From positions 183,768,001-183,832,000 of the forward strand of contig OX597815.1 of the NCBI GenBank assembly GCA_951406725.2: a stretch of 64,000 bases of DNA, written 5' to 3'. Origin of the DNA: Octopus vulgaris. Its lineage: Eukaryota. A model generated the notes under the pieces. It ran no database searches. It was not told the origin of the DNA and saw only the letters and a list, made by a program, of their open reading frames with translations. Numbering within the stretch: the first letter of the stretch is position 1; each line of letters begins with the position of its first letter. The position numbers and the translations under genes were made by a program. This document shows positions 6,518-46,661 of the stretch, in pieces.

Positions 6518-7140
<623 letters not shown>

Positions 7141-8931: not shown

Positions 8932-9348
8932 GTATTTCTTTATTGCCCACAAAGGGCTGAATATAGAGGGGACAAACAAGGACAGGCATAGGTATTAAGT
9001 CGATTACATCGACCTCAGTGCGTAACTGGTACTTAATTTATCGACCCCGAAAGGATGAATGGCAAAGTCGACCTCGGCGGAATTTGAACTCAGAACGTAA
9101 CGACAGACGAAATACCTATTTCTTTATTACCCACAAGGGGCTAAACACAGAGGGGACAAACAAGGACAGACAAAGGGATTAAGTCGATTACATCGACCTC
9201 AGTGCGTAACTGGTACTTAATTTATCGACCCCGAAAGGATGAAAGGCAAAGTCGACCTCGGCGGAATTTGAACTCAGAACGTAACGCAGACGAAATACCG
9301 CTAAGCATTTCACCCGGCGCTCTAACGTGACTGCCAGCTCGCCGCCTT
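8932..9348 (-). mobile_element. Meta-like SINE tandem dimer
   Basis: Two near-identical units on the minus strand, homologous to 5338-5570. Confidence 0.85.
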
Positions 9349-14614: not shown

Positions 14615-14758
14615 TAACATCGAAAATACCCCAGGAAAGAGAACCCAGGTTCAAAATTTCCCCAAGACACCTGATGAAGGCTGGTGGGTATATCAGCTGA
14701 AACGTTTTGTTAACAACAAACAAGATGAGGACAAATATCTGTCAAATGTAAATAATGT
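14513..14758 (+). mobile_element. tRNA-like head + (AAT)n + HHR-bearing tail element
   Basis: gttaagagcgctggctactaacc...gagttcgattcc head, then (AAT)n, then HHR at 14666-14711. Second copy at 42507-43200. Confidence 0.7.
14666..14711 (+). ncRNA. Minimal type I hammerhead ribozyme motif
   Basis: GACAC-CTGATGA-A-GGCTG(10 nt)CAGCT-GAAA-CG-TT-TTGTT, with one stem I mismatch. Confidence 0.65.
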
Positions 14759-32037: not shown

Positions 32038-32645
32038 AATTCTTTATTGCTCCACAAGGAGCTAAACATAGAGGAAACAAACAAGGGCAGGCAGAGAAAT
32101 TAAGTCGATTACATCGACCCCAGTACGTAACTGGTACTTATTTAATCGACTCCGAAGGGATGAAAGGTAAAGTCGACCTCAGCGGAATTTAAACTCAGAA
32201 CGTAACGGCAGACGAAATACCTGTTTCTTTACTACCCACAAGGGGCTAAACACAGTGAGGACGAACAAGGACAGACAAACGGATTAAGTCGATTATATAG
32301 ACCCCAGTGCGTAACTGGTACTTATTTAATCGACTCCGAAAGGATGAAAGGCAAAGTCGACCTCAGCGGAATCTGAACTCAGAACGTAACGGCAGACGAA
32401 ATACGGCTAAGCATTTCTCCCGGAGTGCTAACGATTCTACTAGCTCGCCGCCCTACATAAATATTGGTTTCAAATTTTCGCAGAAGTTGAGCAATTTCGA
32501 GGAAGAGTAAGTCGGTTACATGGACCCCAAAAGGGATAAAAGGTTAAGATGACCTTGGTGGAGCTGGAACTCAGATCATAAAGACGGAAGAAATGCTACT
32601 AAGCATTTTTGTACGGCATGTTAATGGTTCTGCAAGTACGCTTCC
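32038..32645 (-). mobile_element. Meta-like SINE dimer plus a degenerate unit
   Basis: Homology to 8932-9348. Confidence 0.8.
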
Positions 32646-33540
32646 TTAATACCTACTTAAATATCAACAAAAAAAATATTGGTGAGATACTTCATCCCCG
32701 AAAGAGCTACAAAGTAGAAGCATAACGAGATGGATATCGTTGTTTGGGATAAATAAGATGTGAATATCAGTTCGAAAATCAAAGAAACGTTCATTACAGG
32801 CAGCTGCGTCGAAACATTGAACTTCTAAAGCTAGATTATAAATTTACATTTATATCAAAACAAATGGTGCAATTCGTTATCTTTCTAAATCTCTAAATGG
32901 CAATTTGTAAAAGCTAAGGTTTTCAGGAAATAAAATCAATCAGCTAACATACATATTACAAATACAATCTGTTAACGCAACAGTAATAATATCTAGACTT
33001 TTCTCATGGTTAATATCCGACATTGTTCTTGTTATTTACATAACAACAATGGCGATTTGTATCCTTATTAAAAACCAGCTCTTTTCTTACAGGAAGAAGT
33101 CAGATAATTAAAAATAGAAGATAACATAAATACACATACACACACAAACATTCATATATTGGGAGAGAGAGTGAGAGAGAAAAGAGAGAGGCAGAGGCTC
33201 TTTGAACTAGCAAATAATAGCAGAACAGAAGTTGGTTACATGGTTATCAATGGCGGTACGAAAATGTGGTAAGAAACTCCGAAGAGAGCTGAACAGTAGA
33301 AGGTCTTAAGAGAAGAAACCCATCATCGGTCAAGTGTTTCGCCCCATAAGTTCTTACTCTGTAAGGGAGTCGGGGTGGCGGTCCGCATCCAGACACGCAT
33401 TCTCAGTGTCCTACTGCTGATTTTGTGACTTTGTAGCTACTTGGATATCAGAGCCTTGTGCATTTAATCTGCTTGAAATAGATAACAACACATACACAGA
33501 CACAAACACACATACATACATGTATATATATATATACATG

Positions 33541-33620
<80 letters not shown>

Positions 33621-33647
33621 AAAATATGTTACATTAATCAATAGTCA

Positions 33648-33710
33648 AGATAAAACTCTGAGTTTCAGATGCCGAAGTGGAAATCCACAACACCATCTCT
33701 TCGGTTATCT
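33648..33710 (-). ncRNA. Type I hammerhead-like motif (U4C core variant)
   Basis: AGATAA-CCGAAGA-GATG..GTGG(ATTT)CCAC..CATC-T-GAA-ACTC(A)GAGT-T-TTATCT. Confidence 0.6.
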
Positions 33711-34114
33711 GGCCATCTGAAAAACGCTATGAAAAAATACCGTTATATAAAGGGAAATTACTGTATTATGATTCTGCTCGCGAACCCACGTGCGTACTTA
33801 TACGTCACTATGAAAACGTACACATCTTCACTCGCATTTTTCGCCAAATATATACGCATACATATACAACCTCATACACACACACATGCGTACCGTAAAA
33901 GTTCATACATACGTCTATATACGCACAAACACAAGAAAAACCATGGTTAAAGATAACAGAAAAAAACATAAGGAAGTATACTTTATATATATAAATTTTA
34001 AAAATAGGATAAAATCTTAATAAGAAATCTTAACAAGATATTATCAAGTAGTTAGCGTGAAAAACCTCATAAGAGAAAAAAAACTGTAATTTTTTTTCTT
34101 TGAAAATATTTATT

Positions 34115-34422
34115 TATATTGTATAGAGGGCATTATTACACATAAATGCCGCACGCTAGGAGGGACTCTTAAAGTCATAACTACCAAATATAAACAAATC
34201 GTACCGAATGCAATTCTCGAAGCGAGTCATTTAAAAACAGAATTTAGCTCCAGATCACCTGTGATTTCGCAAGTAACGTTGTATCCGCGTCCCTTGCTCT
34301 TACCTTGCTCTTAAATGACTCGCTTCGAGAATTGCATTCGGTACGATTTGTCTATATTTGGTAGTTATGACTTTAAGAGTCCCTCCTAGCGTGCGGCATT
34401 TATGTGTAATAATGCCCTCTAT

Positions 34423-34430
<8 letters not shown>
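34115..34430. repeat. Fold-back: 120-bp inverted arms (1 mismatch), 76-bp spacer
   Basis: 34115-34234 vs 34311-34430. Confidence 0.95.
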
Positions 34431-34456
<26 letters not shown>

Positions 34457-34734
34457 CATCAAAAAAGGGGTAGAATTAATTAATTGTTAATAAATTCGAC
34501 CAAGCAGTATTCGGTATGTAAAGACCATTTACGGTATATTTGAAGTATTAATTTATAAAAATATGGTAAAGTAAAAAAATTCACTTTACCACACACCGAA
34601 CTTTTCAGAAATAGCAGCCAAAAATTTGGCTATTTCTTCAACTGCAAATAAAAGTCTCCAGACAATGCATACTCAGAAAATAACTCACATAGGTATAAGG
34701 GAAAAACAATGAAAGATCACATCCATATACGACA

Positions 34735-34796
34735 CCCGAGGACAGTCTGTTTCTGGATTTGTGGGTAAAACGCCACTTTTCCTTCATCAGCTCAGA
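34735..34796 (-). ncRNA. Type I hammerhead ribozyme, unit 1
   Basis: TCTGAG-CTGATGA-A-GGA..GTGG(8 nt)CCAC..TCC-A-GAA-ACAG(A)CTGT-C-CTCGGG; GUC cleavage site. Confidence 0.8.
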
Positions 34797-35292
34797 GATT
34801 TCTTCTGATTTAGATTTGAAAATACTAAGAATCAAACATACCCGTCCGATATCTGTAACATCGGACAAACCATGCCAGACACCCAGTACTAGCGAATCCA
34901 AAAATACGAATGAGATCTATTATTCTCCCTGTCCACCCACGTGAGTCATAGAGCATACATTTCTACAGAGGTAAAAACTGCAGTTCAAATTCTTGGAGAT
35001 AAAGCATTATATTGTCATCAAAAAAGGGTAGAATTAATTAATTGTTAATAAATTCGACCAAGCAGTATTCGGTATGTAAAGACCATTTACGGTATATTTG
35101 AAGTATTAATTTATAAAAATATGGTAAAGTAAAAAAATTCACTTTACCACACACCGAACTTTTCAGAAATAGCAGCCAAAAATTTGGCTATTTCTTCAAC
35201 TGCAAATAAAAGTCTCCAGACAATGCATACTCAGAAAATAACTCACATAGGTATAAGGGAAAAACAATGAAAGATCACATCCATATACGATA

Positions 35293-35354
35293 CCCGAGGA
35301 CAGTCTGTTTCTGGATTTGTGGGTAAAACGCCACTTTTCCTTCATCAGCTCAGA
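35293..35354 (-). ncRNA. Type I hammerhead ribozyme, unit 2
   Basis: Same motif, 558 bp from unit 1. Confidence 0.8.
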
Positions 35355-35851
35355 GATTTCTTCTGATTTAGATTTGAAAATACTAAGAATCAAACATACC
35401 CGTCCGATATCTGTAACATCGGACAAACCATGCCAGACACCCAGTACTAGCGAATCCAAAAATACGAATGAGATCTATTATTCTCCCTGTCCACCCACGT
35501 GAGTCATAGAGCATACATTTCTACAGAAGTAAAAACTGCAGTTCAAATTCTTGGAGATAAAGCATTATATTGTCATCAAAAAAGGGGTAGAATTAATTAA
35601 TTGTTAATAAATTCGACCAAGCAGTATTCGGTATGTAAAGACCATTTACGGTATATTTGAAGTATTAATTTATAAAAATATGGTAAAGTAAAAAAATTCA
35701 CTTTACCACACACCGAACTTTTCAGAAATAGCAGCCAAAAATTTGGCTATTTCTTCAACTGCAAATAAAAGTCTCCAGACAATGCATACTCAGAAAATAA
35801 CTCACATAGGTATAAGGGAAAAACAATGAAAGATCACATCCATATACGATA

Positions 35852-35913
35852 CCCGAGGACAGTCTGTTTCTGGATTTGTGGGTAAAACGCCACTTTTCCT
35901 TCATCAGCTCAGA
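35852..35913 (-). ncRNA. Type I hammerhead ribozyme, unit 3
   Basis: Same motif, 559 bp from unit 2. Confidence 0.8.
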
Positions 35914-36082
35914 GATTTCTTCTGATTTAGATTTGAAAATACTAAGAATCAAACATACCCGTCCGATATCTGTAACATCGGACAAACCATGCCAGACACC
36001 CAGTACAAGCGAATCCAAAAATACGAATGAGATCTATTATTCTCCCTGTCCACCCATATATATGTGTGTGTGTGTGTGTTAT

Positions 36083-36243
36083 ACGCGTAGGTATGGCTGT
36101 GTGGTAAGAAGTGCTTCCTGACTACCTAGTTCCGAGTTCAGTCCCACTGCGTGGCACCTTGGTCAAGTGCCTTCTACTATAGCCACGGGCCGATCAAAGC
36201 CTCGTGATCGGATTTGGTAGATGGAAACTGAATAAAGTCCATC

Positions 36244-36288
<45 letters not shown>

Positions 36289-36535
36289 GTGTCTTTATGT
36301 CTATATTTGTCCCCAATCTCCGCTTGATAACCGGTGCTGATCTGTTCACCTCCCTTAAACTGATCGTTCAGCAAAAGAGACTAACATAATAAGTACCAAC
36401 CTTACTAAAAAAAACAACAAAAAAAAAACAAGAAAATATTAAGTACTGGGGGTCACTTCATTCGGCTAAATCTTCTTCAAAGAGGTGCCCCAGCATGGCC
36501 CCAGGCTAATGGCTGAAACAAGTAAAAGATAAAAG
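36083..36535 (+). mobile_element. CORE-like SINE, older diverged copy
   Basis: Homology to 2717-3122. Confidence 0.78.
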
Positions 36536-36539
36536 GCAT

Positions 36540-36968
36540 ACTTCCACTTTTCCACTTGTGTCGCCATCACTTACACCTACACAGACATTCACTACTTCTC
36601 AACATGCCTGACTTGCACTCGTTCCTCCAACACCTTCAATCCCTTCTTTGCCGTTTTCTTGCTCCCCCCCCCAATACTTGCAACCCGCAAAAAAACTTTC
36701 TCACTTACTTTTTAAAAAAAACTCGCCACTCTAGCCATCTCTCCTTTCTTAGCCGCTACCTCCGCCATCACGTCACAAAGGTTGGCGATTTTTTTTCCTC
36801 TGTCTTCCCTTCTCTGGATCTTTCCTTCTCTTATGATTCCGACGAAGAGCTCCGCTCGAAACGTTAAACCCTCCTTCTTTCCTTCTTTCGTGAGCGTCCA
36901 ATAATACTATATTTGTTCCACGTCCTCGCGTTGTCGTGTTTTTTTGTGCTTTCTTGTTTGGATTAACT
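36540..36968 (+). mobile_element. Internally deleted Penelope-like element: ORF N-terminal remnant joined to a pLTR with mutated HHR (36835-36869)
   Basis: KKTRHSSHLSFLSRYLRHHVTK resembles the Penelope N-terminal R..HL.FL.RC....PKG motif. The pLTR matches 2515-2708. Confidence 0.6.
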
Positions 36969-36971
36969 ATA

Positions 36972-37020
<49 letters not shown>

Positions 37021-42652: not shown

Positions 42653-43200
42653 TTATCATAGCCATGTGGGGGAGCATCATAGCCATGTGTTGAGAGGGAT
42701 TCTTTGGGGTTTGAATTATTCACCTCTGGAAACATGGGTGTTTCATTCAACATCCTTAAACAACCCTTATTCAGGGACCTTTTGAGCAGGATGGGTTACT
42801 CGACCTGAAGAAAATTCTAAGTGGGCCCCACCTGCAAGGTCATGTGCTGCTTATCTTGATATGAGATCACCATGTCGTGCCCATATGGTTGTGATGCATG
42901 TGCCTAGTGTACCCTTATCAGACGGGTATTCATGATGGGTATACTGGGCTTCGTATATTTTACCCCAGTGTCACTTTGATGGCATGCACTGCTCTCTCAC
43001 TCAATAATAATAATAATAATAATAATAACAACAACAGCAACATCGAAAAATACCTTAGGAATGAGAACCCAGGTTCGAAATTTTCCCCAAGACAGCTGAT
43101 GAAGGCTGAAACGTGTTAACAACAAATAAGATGAGGACAAATATCCGTCAAATGTAAATAATGTAAATAATGTACATACTTCCTCATCTCTTAAATATAG
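42441..43200 (+). mobile_element. Second tRNA-head/(AAT)n/HHR-tail element, with inverted head copy and nested insert
   Basis: Head 42507-42574, inverted head 42441-42495, insert 42655-43002, and HHR with deleted stem II at 43091-43117. Confidence 0.65.
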
Positions 43201-43364: not shown

Positions 43365-44490
43365 TCCTTAGGGACAAAAGCCCGACACTTTTAAGGAGGG
43401 AACCAGTCGATTCGATCGACTCTAGTACGCAACTGGTACTCAATTTATCGACCCCGGAAGGATGAAAGGCAAAGTTTTCTTCGGCAGTATTTGAACTCGG
43501 AACATAAAGACAGACGAAATACCGCTAAGCATTTTTGCTCGGCGTGCTAACGTTTCTTTTCTACTCTAGGCACGAGGCTCGAAATTTTTGGGGGAGAGAA
43601 CCAGTCGATTAGATAGACCTCAGTACGCAACTGGTACTTAATTTATCGAACCGGAAGGATGAAAGGCAAAGTTTTCTTCGGCAGAATTTGAACTCGGAAC
43701 GTAAAGACAGACGAAATACCGCTAAGCATTTTTGCTCGGCGTGCTAACGTTTCTTTTCTACTCTAGGCACAAGGCTCGAAATTTTTGGGGAGAGAACCAG
43801 TCGATTAGATCGAGCCCAGTACGCAACTGGTACTTAATTTATCGAACCGGAAGGATGAAAGGCAAAGTTTTCTTCGGCAGAATTTGAACTCGGAACGTAA
43901 AGACAGACGAAATACCGCTAAGCATTTTTGCTCGGCGTGCTAACGTTTCTTTTCTACTCTAGGCACAAGGCTCGAAATTTTTGGGGAGAGAACCAGTCGA
44001 TTAGATCGACCCCAGTACGCAACTGGTACTTAATTTATCGAACCGGAAGGATGAAAGGCAAAGTTTTCTTCGGCAGAATTTGAACTCGGAACGTAAAGAC
44101 AGACGAAATACCGCTAAGCATTTTTGCTCGGCGTGCTAACGTTTCTTTTCTACTCTAGGCACAAGGCTCGAAATTTTTGGGGAGAGAACCAGTCGATTAG
44201 ATCGAGCCCAGTACGCAACTGGTACTTAATTTATCGAACCGGAAGGATGAAAGGCAAAGTTTTCTTCGGCAGAATTTGAACTCGGAACGTAAAGACAGAC
44301 GAAATACCGCTAAGCATTTTTGCTTGGCGTGCTAACGTTTCTTTTCTACTCTAGGCACAAGGCTCGAAATTTTTGGGGAGAGAACCAGTCGATTAGGTCG
44401 AGCCCAGTACGCAGCTGGTACTTAATTTATCGAACCGGAAGGATGAAAGGCGAAGTTTTCTTCGGCAGAATTTGAACTCAGAATGTGAAG
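43365..44490 (-). repeat. SINE-derived tandem array, 196-bp unit, about 5.7 copies
   Basis: ctactctagg at 43561, 43758, 43954, 44150 and 44346; the unit is a Meta-like SINE body. Confidence 0.93.
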
Positions 44491-46661
44491 ATCTGTAAGA
44501 CGTTTCAAAATTTCTCCATCTGAGATTCTTTAGGTGAATAGATGTGTGCATCGACAGTTCAACAAACACATCAACTCAACCACATATTTACAAACATCGG
44601 GAACTTTCTTAACTCAAAAGTGTTGTTTTCTCAGCGACCGGCTTGAACTCTCTCAAGAAGAACTTAAATAAAATTCAAAGAAAAAACATACATACATACA
44701 TACATGCACATCATAAACACATAACACACACATACACACACATCTTTTTAGGACTTCAACAGTGCATTTATTTATTTATTTATTTGCATAAATTTTGTAC
44801 ACATATCGACGTTGGTAGGTGTTTTCTTGCATTATATTATTTTTTGGTAAAAAGGAGTTATTGCAGAATTGGAGTGACGCAGAAAGAACAAAAAAGGGAA
44901 AATAATAACAATTAAAAAAACCATATTTACTAAAGTTTCAGGAAGTAAACGAAATCTGAGATCGAGTTAAAAAGTAATTGTCTTTTTTGGAATTATCATA
45001 AGACAAAATGGTTTATGCGGTCTTCTGTATTTAAAATAGCATCCATTCTGTGATATCGTTTTGAAATTTAATTAATCTGTGATTTTTCGTGACTAAAATC
45101 TCTTCTTTTCATTGAGAAAGAATGCAATATCTGATGTATTTCATATTTATTACTATTTTCAGCATTTCTTAAGTAATCTTGATCTTGTTTTTATATAAGT
45201 TTCTATCAATGTTAATGGCAAACCTCGAAATACCACAGAGCTTTATTCTTGTGCATCACTATTTTTATGTAAGACGCTTTTGAAGGTTCGGTATATTTCA
45301 TTTACTCGAAAAAAAAAAAACGAAATATTCTTTTTTGTAGCTTTAGTACACCATAGAATAAAGAAGGAATATAAAGGTGTGGCTGTCTAGTCAGTATTCT
45401 TTGGAAAAAACAGCATTTCGAAATGAAATTGCAAATATTACTTTTCGTATTTGCTTAATATTTACTTTTATGAAACTATTAAAAGAAAAGAAGAAAAAGT
45501 TTTCCCTCAGTTTTGCGGAATTATCTGAAACTTGCCTAGAAACCGGAAAAAATAGTTTTAAATTTAGATCATATAAGATCATTTGTACTTTTTTATGAAT
45601 AAAATTAGTCGTTACCACTTCATAATACTCAAAATTCCTGTGATTTCGAATACGGTCTTTTCTATAGCTTGATTCCCTAGAGGAATAAAAACATTCATTT
45701 TCTTTAAAAGATTATTACCTGTAAATATTTTCAACTCTATCTGAATGCATAACCTTATAAGCATACACTTGCAACATGTTTTTCCATGCAGCTGTGTATG
45801 GATTCGGAGTTTAGCTTTGAAGGAAATCAGAGAAATCCATGAAAGTTTTTACTGAATGACGAGGAAAAAAAAATAAACAAAAAGGCAAAAAAAAGAAGAA
45901 GAAAAAAAGAAGAAAAAAAAAGAAAAAGAAAAATGAGACAATATTTAACATCAAAGAAAATCACAATCGAAATATTCTTACCGTCTCTATACATATCCTT
46001 TGCAACACAGCATTTCATAAAATATTTCTTTGCTATATTTTTTAACGTACGAGTCTTCAGTCATAACTAATATTGTGAACTTCCAAACTTTTTATTTGTA
46101 CATCATGGTGAAGTAGAGCAAATTGCTTAACATCATGATGTTTTCATCTTTTTGTGGAGTTCTCTTCCGAAACATGTCTGAAAGCTAACTAAATTTGCTC
46201 TCGCTTTTATTAATTCTAACCTAAAATATGTCTTTCCGATTCCTGATCTTTTCTCTCGTAACCGCAAAATACGTTATTCATGCAAAGTTATTTTTAAACG
46301 TGTTCTTTAGATTAAAACCATTCGTAATTGGAAATCAATTTGTGCATCCTTTTCATGCCAGGATTTTCATATTTCAAAAACTATATTCATGCATAGCTTA
46401 TACTACCCGTCTCCCCTACACTCGCCAATCCCCACCGTCGGCACATCTCGTTCATTTTTAGACTCCCTTGAGAATACATGTAAATATAAAGGAATTGCTA
46501 TTTGGGATGCAATCAGTGTATAAACAGAGGCATAATTATACGTATATACATACACAAATACATACACGCACGCACACATGTACACATACACATATACATA
46601 TACACCCATCTTATGTAAGTATTGGTATGGATCAATGCATATATATATATGTACGTATATG

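Follow-up and report, generated by a model that had tools for sequence, protein, structure and literature searches.

A young family of tandem hammerhead-bearing units in Octopus vulgaris: a non-LTR retrozyme with Penelope-like insertion marks

The window analysed here, a stretch of 64,000 nucleotides from Octopus vulgaris (contig OX597815.1), carries a tandem array of a 558-bp unit, and the family formed by this unit is a new member of the known class of non-LTR retrozymes. We consider it likely that the family represents a young, protein-free retrozyme for which a circular RNA of 558 nt served as template and a Penelope-like element (PLE) supplied the reverse transcriptase. That it was moved by a PLE is almost certain. 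In the main texts of the literature searched, no description of this family or of a cephalopod hammerhead retrozyme was found.

The units of the array are 99.5% alike and differ among themselves at 4 places only, each unit having distinct variants. The insertion contains no inverted piece; its RNA 3' end lies at 34453 and its truncated RNA 5' end at 36056. The features are given below, where q denotes a coordinate system starting at position 35012 (q1) of unit 2.

34453..36056, minus strand: whole insertion, 2.87 units head-to-tail
34453..35011, minus strand: unit 1, 559 bp
35012..35569, minus strand: unit 2, 558 bp, reference unit (q1 = 35012)
35570..36056, minus strand: unit 3, partial, 487 bp
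34735..34796, minus strand: type I hammerhead 1, stem I to stem I; predicted cut between 34741 and 34740
35293..35354, minus strand: type I hammerhead 2; predicted cut between 35299 and 35298
35852..35913, minus strand: type I hammerhead 3; predicted cut between 35858 and 35857
35299..35857, minus strand: predicted cut-to-cut monomer, 559 nt; -179 kcal/mol, z -8.2
34741..35298, minus strand: predicted cut-to-cut monomer, 558 nt
35068..35195, minus strand: conserved RNA module of unit 2, a hairpin plus a 10-bp helix closing a multiloop
35165-35195 (hairpin) and 35149-35158 with 35068-35077 (10-bp helix), minus strand: module parts in unit 2
34510-34637 and 35627-35754, minus strand: the other window copies of the module
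35093..35109, minus strand: site A (q82-98), unpaired A/U-rich stretch within the module, where most RNA 3' ends of the family lie
35012..35048, minus strand: site B (q1-37), the other place where RNA 3' ends of the family cluster, that of the window insertion (34453) among them
34426..34453: (TA)14 target repeat, left flank
36057..36080: TATATAT(GT)n, right flank

An earlier note made from the letters of this DNA had described about 2.9 near-identical units without a real open reading frame in a TA repeat, and both descriptions hold for the measured units and their TA-type flanks on both sides. The longest stop-to-stop frame inside one unit has 92 codons at a unit GC content of 0.35, and neither a PLE protein match nor a tRNA was found in the window. 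Unlike an autonomous PLE, the element has no frame for a reverse transcriptase (RT) plus GIY-YIG protein inside it. Directly to the left of the array, a 134-bp inverted repeat (96%; window 34106-34439) ends in the TA repeat of the array. Similar sequence also occurs in loci L068 and L186, and this repeat is possibly another Penelope-type inverted insertion. Elsewhere in the window, tandems of one common repeat were observed at 43395-44491, 8933-9299 and 32040-32404, with 196 bp (5.6 copies) and 184 bp (2 copies).

On the minus strand, the CUGAUGA core was present in all three units, starting at 34790, 35348 and 35907. Each hammerhead shows an A-A opposition at the base of stem II, which consists of 3+4 bp around internal loops, then GAAA, a palindromic stem III (ACAG-A-CUGU) and GUC, while stem I (UCUGAG/CUCGGG) has 6 bp including two G-U pairs. 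The intact minus-strand hammerhead that had been proposed for every unit was thus seen in 3/3 units with core, A-A opposition, stems and GUC. Its topology is that of a type I hammerhead, found in tandem units only; the features of plant-type LTR retrozymes, whose type III hammerhead lies in LTRs flanking a unique core, were absent. The scan with the Rfam hammerhead models which the earlier note had proposed was run, and gave no hammerhead match in 33500-37000 or on a 111-base piece at E values up to 10. As Rfam did not recognise the motif, it was tested by comparison, and the identification as a hammerhead rests on motif and covariation. A pattern of the core plus stem III had 168 matches in the whole genome versus 1 for the reversed control, so that the motif is not a chance occurrence.

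Among 26 loci checked, hammerhead and module were both in place in 13, and 11 of these 13 loci gave the 11 sequences of a covariation alignment representing 10 lineages, which were assigned by eye. We are aware of the fact that the rows were chosen for having the core; this choice accounts in part for the core conservation, but not for the covariation of the stems. Two-sided changes were found in 5/5 pairs of stem I and 3/3 pairs of stem II. With the structure given, 94.9% of the alignment cells of the 11 sequences pair, and two-sided changes occur in 18 of 42 pairs, a value equalled in 0/500 shuffles. RNAalifold without a given structure recovered stem I and the module. Loss of the core among genomic copies had been named earlier as an outcome that would count against the hammerhead; ten related lineages keep it in these core-selected rows, and their stems covary. 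As judged from these comparisons, the hammerhead motif is confirmed as real and intact in every unit. Energy estimates for stem III gave +2.1 kcal/mol as a hairpin and -6.9 as a duplex, and placed the active fold of the monomer 4.5 kcal/mol above the local minimum. The argument of the earlier note that such hammerheads cleave as dimers therefore appears reasonable, the palindromic stem III being predicted to be unfavourable as a hairpin and favourable as a duplex.

The family was searched in the 2.8-Gb genome (227 contigs). Whole-unit searches gave at least 128 matches from 40 scored of 1574 candidates, and the 20 bases after the cut site had 253 genome matches versus 0 for the control. In total the genome holds about 250 units, which sit in TA repeats and are arranged in tandem or as inverted arrays. 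For further analyses 86 non-redundant loci were used, comprising the best whole-unit matches, the first 100 listed matches of the core pattern and three wider-core matches; because of this choice the sample favours long, ribozyme-bearing copies. More than one unit in a row was found at 46/86 loci, which answers the earlier call for a genome-wide search for further arrays; the longest row has 5.2 units. Both orientations were present at 45/86 loci. TA-rich flanks accompany 78/86 loci, compared to 3.6% of random 30-mers. The median divergence was 2.2% between loci and 0.5% within arrays (45 loci with overlap, four diverged loci dropped), and from these low values we conclude that the family is young. 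The former description as retrozyme-like, young and multi-copy is hence supported by dispersed tandem copies, the 168 and 253 pattern matches and the 2.2% median divergence. An assembly artefact as origin of the trimer, or a chance match as origin of the motif, would agree with the near identity of the units and the lack of an Rfam match, and is nonetheless extremely improbable in view of the distinct unit variants, the 46 tandem loci of 86, the 168 versus 1 pattern matches and the covariation.

The way in which the copies end carries the PLE signature. Outer ends on the RNA 3' side are concentrated at q1-15, at q37 and at q74-101, and 82/86 loci have such an end; site A is an unpaired A/U-rich stretch in the predicted fold. 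Two outward ends were found at 45 loci, at 26 of which both ends fall into the two site windows. These windows were set after seeing the data, and the remaining 19/45 loci have a non-canonical end; within them, 24/26 inverted loci use one end of each site, where 50% is expected if the ends were independent (p about 5e-6). One end of the inverted arrays carries a tail of 45-100 bases. PLE insertions are described as carrying a tail at one end (Craig et al., 2021, PMC8557442), and for the anole element two internal start sites as well as cutting and extension of both target strands were reported (Frangieh et al., 2024, PMC11167929). The use of one end of each site in 24/26 loci therefore matches the one-ended tail and the two internal starts of PLEs. 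The inverted arrays agree with priming from both strands as well as with fold-back copying.

The same ends bear on a proposal by Li et al. (2026), in which single units are retrotransposed and then expanded in place by DNA duplication like a minisatellite. Variants shared by part of the units at three loci (L026, L029, L117) would agree with such an expansion. Against it, the arrays are of fractional length, their 3' end is fixed while the 5' truncation is random, and inverted arms share one haplotype, all of which points to arrays made during insertion; no row at the 86 loci is longer than 5.2 units. We regard expansion in place as improbable for this family and return to copying from RNA.

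The 559-nt monomer is predicted to fold at -179 kcal/mol (z -8.24), and 0/100 shuffles were as stable. As a circle, the hammerhead strand reached -174 kcal/mol versus -109 for the opposite strand, and 29 of the 188 pairs are G-U. Because the opposite strand is weaker and G-U pairs are present, the structure is that of the RNA strand and not a DNA palindrome. Stems I and III are unformed in the lowest-energy circle. The variant counts, from which four diverged or decayed loci (L037, L060, L202, L203) were left out, pointed to maintenance of the fold: variants in at least 3 loci broke confident pairs in 8/20 cases versus 66/89 for private variants (p 0.007). Shared variants were also rarer at paired positions (20/53 versus 96/163, p 0.011), but with transitions alone the pair-preserving bias lost significance (p 0.25). 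At L202 and L203 pair-breaking changes are about as many as pair-keeping ones. Unit length stays at 550-610 bp across lineages, and long stems join the two halves of the unit.

Which RNA served as template was approached from the break points and variants of the copies. Among the first 100 copies listed, the cut site itself is the break point in 0 and a position 4-6 bases upstream of it in 2, by a pattern which misses breaks placing G or C twelve bases upstream. The cleaved linear monomer was accordingly rejected as the usual template. Subfamily variants were uniform inside an array in 261/284 cases and across inversions in 157/173; many non-uniform cases lie at homopolymers or junctions. Nineteen variants were private to one array yet present in all its covering units, and 89 were found in one unit only. 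Six variants at the three loci named above were common to only part of the units, a distribution that a single rolling-circle event could not produce. Array units were closer to each other than to the nearest other locus in 17/45 loci only. Taken as sequence patterns, read-through of the cut and uniform arrays fit a circular monomer as template; uncleaved multimers also fit.

A non-autonomous Penelope-type element copied from long uncleaved array transcripts, with the hammerhead acting rarely or at another step and no circle needed, has therefore to be weighed. It accounts for read-through at the cut site, for the two end sites and for the partly shared variants, and has precedents in the anole element, which inserts without cleavage from unprocessed RNA (PMC11167929), and in the Xenopus dimers, most of which stayed uncleaved, with 1 of 9 cleaved (Li et al., 2026, 10.64898/2026.07.22.740005), a result that also speaks against the cleavage model. 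On the other hand, the 261/284 uniform cases and the 19 array-private variants would need repeated monomer bottlenecks, and there would be little reason for a unit kept at 550-610 bp with long stems linking both halves across lineages. Copying from uncleaved transcripts is a possibility to which we give roughly half the credence of the circular template.

The unit was present in 20 of 24 sequencing runs listed; none of these is recorded as RNA, and their RNA status is a guess. Four runs were examined, as contigs only and from other individuals, one under another organism label (40/43 variant rows). One 597-base contig starts and ends in the same 30 bases, giving a 567-base loop, as expected for circle and tandem alike. 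T>C changes, which correspond to A>G on the hammerhead strand, exceeded A>G by 17 to 1 in run X3 and 9 to 1 in run X8, in few contigs each. Eleven such T>C changes were not seen in the genomic copies that span these positions (77-82 loci), and on the hammerhead strand the 5' neighbour is U or A at 13/14 sites, the context preferred by ADAR. These runs, guessed to be RNA, hint at an edited minus-strand transcript. A genomic A>G excess stemming from edited templates was also considered and rejected, as unit-private changes numbered 14 A>G to 12 T>C and array-wide changes 2 to 7.

As possible motor, PLE proteins were sought in the genome, where 148 GIY-YIG matches were obtained among 150 scored. 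A 781-aa RT plus GIY-YIG frame was found in 10/16 genomic stretches examined; these frames carry the CX4CxxC linker, as described for Neptune and Nematis. The Neptune-type elements have pseudo-LTRs of about 500 bp and end in (TA)n with a TATATA overlap. No homology of unit or module to an autonomous PLE was detected by blastn and nhmmer in 36-40 PLE-bearing loci, a sample of GIY-YIG-detectable families only, and for this reason the resident Neptune-type partner is a candidate only. Derivation from the pseudo-LTR of a resident PLE found no support in these loci, as matches fell only in separate neighbouring insertions. The same holds for apparent links between unit and PLE in L068, L164 and L205, which are neighbouring insertions set apart by TA repeats; the GIY-YIG pieces of L083 and L092 sit in the flanks. 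A supposed 33-base tail in a Neptune-type element proved to be merely TA repeat. Further observations concern L121-L131, a Neptune-type element of young age which has a 479-aa frame upstream that matches no Pfam family and a pseudo-LTR holding a variant minimal hammerhead with a UUGAUAA core, and L164 (412-1516, minus strand), where decayed reverse-transcriptase frames are unlike the Neptune-type ones and presumably Naiad-like.

The module extends beyond the family. A fragment at window 6850-7110, with two inverted arms between TA repeats, resembles part of the unit and carries the shared module; it belongs to a related hammerhead tandem family with units of 593-608 bp. The pattern of the 10-bp helix of the module had 4074 genome matches versus 1 for the control. 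Related tandems have units of 551, 559-560, 563-566 and 565 bp, with the hammerhead 184-234 nt upstream of the module. More tentatively, and with rather more doubt than trust, one may see here viroid-like RNA circles that form a radiation of their own (at least 10 lineages, 550-610 nt), which would not stem from resident PLE pseudo-LTRs and whose own conserved module would recruit the Neptune-type protein and set the two start sites. If true, no docking signal for a reverse transcriptase would have been defined in an animal retrozyme before this module.

Several other hammerhead-like sequences were observed. L198 and L230 have a stem II insert of about 70-85 nt, an intact core and a covarying stem I. 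L204-L208 are tandems of a 427-bp family whose type I hammerhead has a palindromic stem III of 10 nt, and they show no match to the 558-bp unit or its module. Hammerhead-like cores of another repeat family lie at window 14671-14705 and 43096-43115 (plus strand), the latter without most of stem II. Genome-wide, cores of the A-GG...CC-N-GAAAC layout numbered 1926 versus 29 in controls; in the commonest of them stem II is short, and its surroundings hold no long ORF.

For copying from a circular monomer, the following course is proposed. The minus strand of the array would be transcribed, adjacent hammerheads would pair via the palindromic stem III and cut after GUC, and a host ligase would close the monomer, with stems I and III unformed in its lowest-energy fold. 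A Penelope-type RT/GIY-YIG protein, most likely the resident Neptune-type one, would bind the module and nick (TA)n, and the cDNA would start inside the RNA at site A or B, aided by short TA-like matches. Copying could then go on for 0.5 to 5 laps of the circle, across the re-joined ribozyme, and where the second site is used, the result would be inverted arrays of which one end bears a tail of 45-100 bases.

Compared to the metazoan non-LTR retrozymes of coral, mussel and axolotl, as described by Cervera and de la Pena (2020, PMC7229834), the family shares non-coding tandem units with a GC content below 45% and one type I hammerhead each, a short palindromic stem III, a highly self-paired monomer and co-occurring PLEs. 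It differs by its 558-567 nt, by the extended stem II with A-A opposition and by circles which are predicted only. Stems I and III are unformed in the lowest-energy circle here and reported free in most metazoan retrozymes of that study. Insertion by PLEs, only proposed there, has direct genomic marks here in inverted arrays and two end sites. The unit had been called comparatively long: it does exceed the 170-400 nt of these retrozymes, but lies within the 51-972 bp (fish mean 650) given by Li, Clavereau and Pollet (2026, bioRxiv 10.64898/2026.07.22.740005), who regard retrozymes as non-autonomous PLE derivatives. Their sample, as described, holds no mollusc, whereas the window family is from Octopus vulgaris; and pseudo-LTR homology, reported by them for many Xenopus families, was not found here to the Neptune-type copies examined.

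With PLEs, as far as described in PMC11167929, PMC8557442 and PMC4209133, the family has in common AT-rich targets, two internal starts, a one-ended tail and partial tandems with inverted pieces, and in its hammerhead the extra base before stem II and the palindromic stem III. Dimeric PLE hammerheads were reported to have low activity (Cervera and de la Pena, 2014). Unlike PLEs, the family has no ORF, and its tail measures 45-100 bases versus 30-40. Its starts lie in an A/U-rich loop with TA-like target overlap, in contrast to the AC-rich stem-loop without homology described for PAc, the anole Poseidon element (PMC11167929).

The way in which animal retrozymes move is still hypothetical, and help by PLEs was proposed from co-occurrence and pseudo-LTR trees. 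Octopus vulgaris offers in one genome a young family with the tail signature of PLEs, a covarying module at the start sites in about ten lineages, and intact candidate motors. This makes three questions directly testable in vitro: circle versus uncleaved multimer as template, the RNA feature that a PLE protein recognises in trans, and the need of the ribozyme for a dimer or a protein. The retrozyme class is known; distinctive here are the clear insertion signature and the conserved module.
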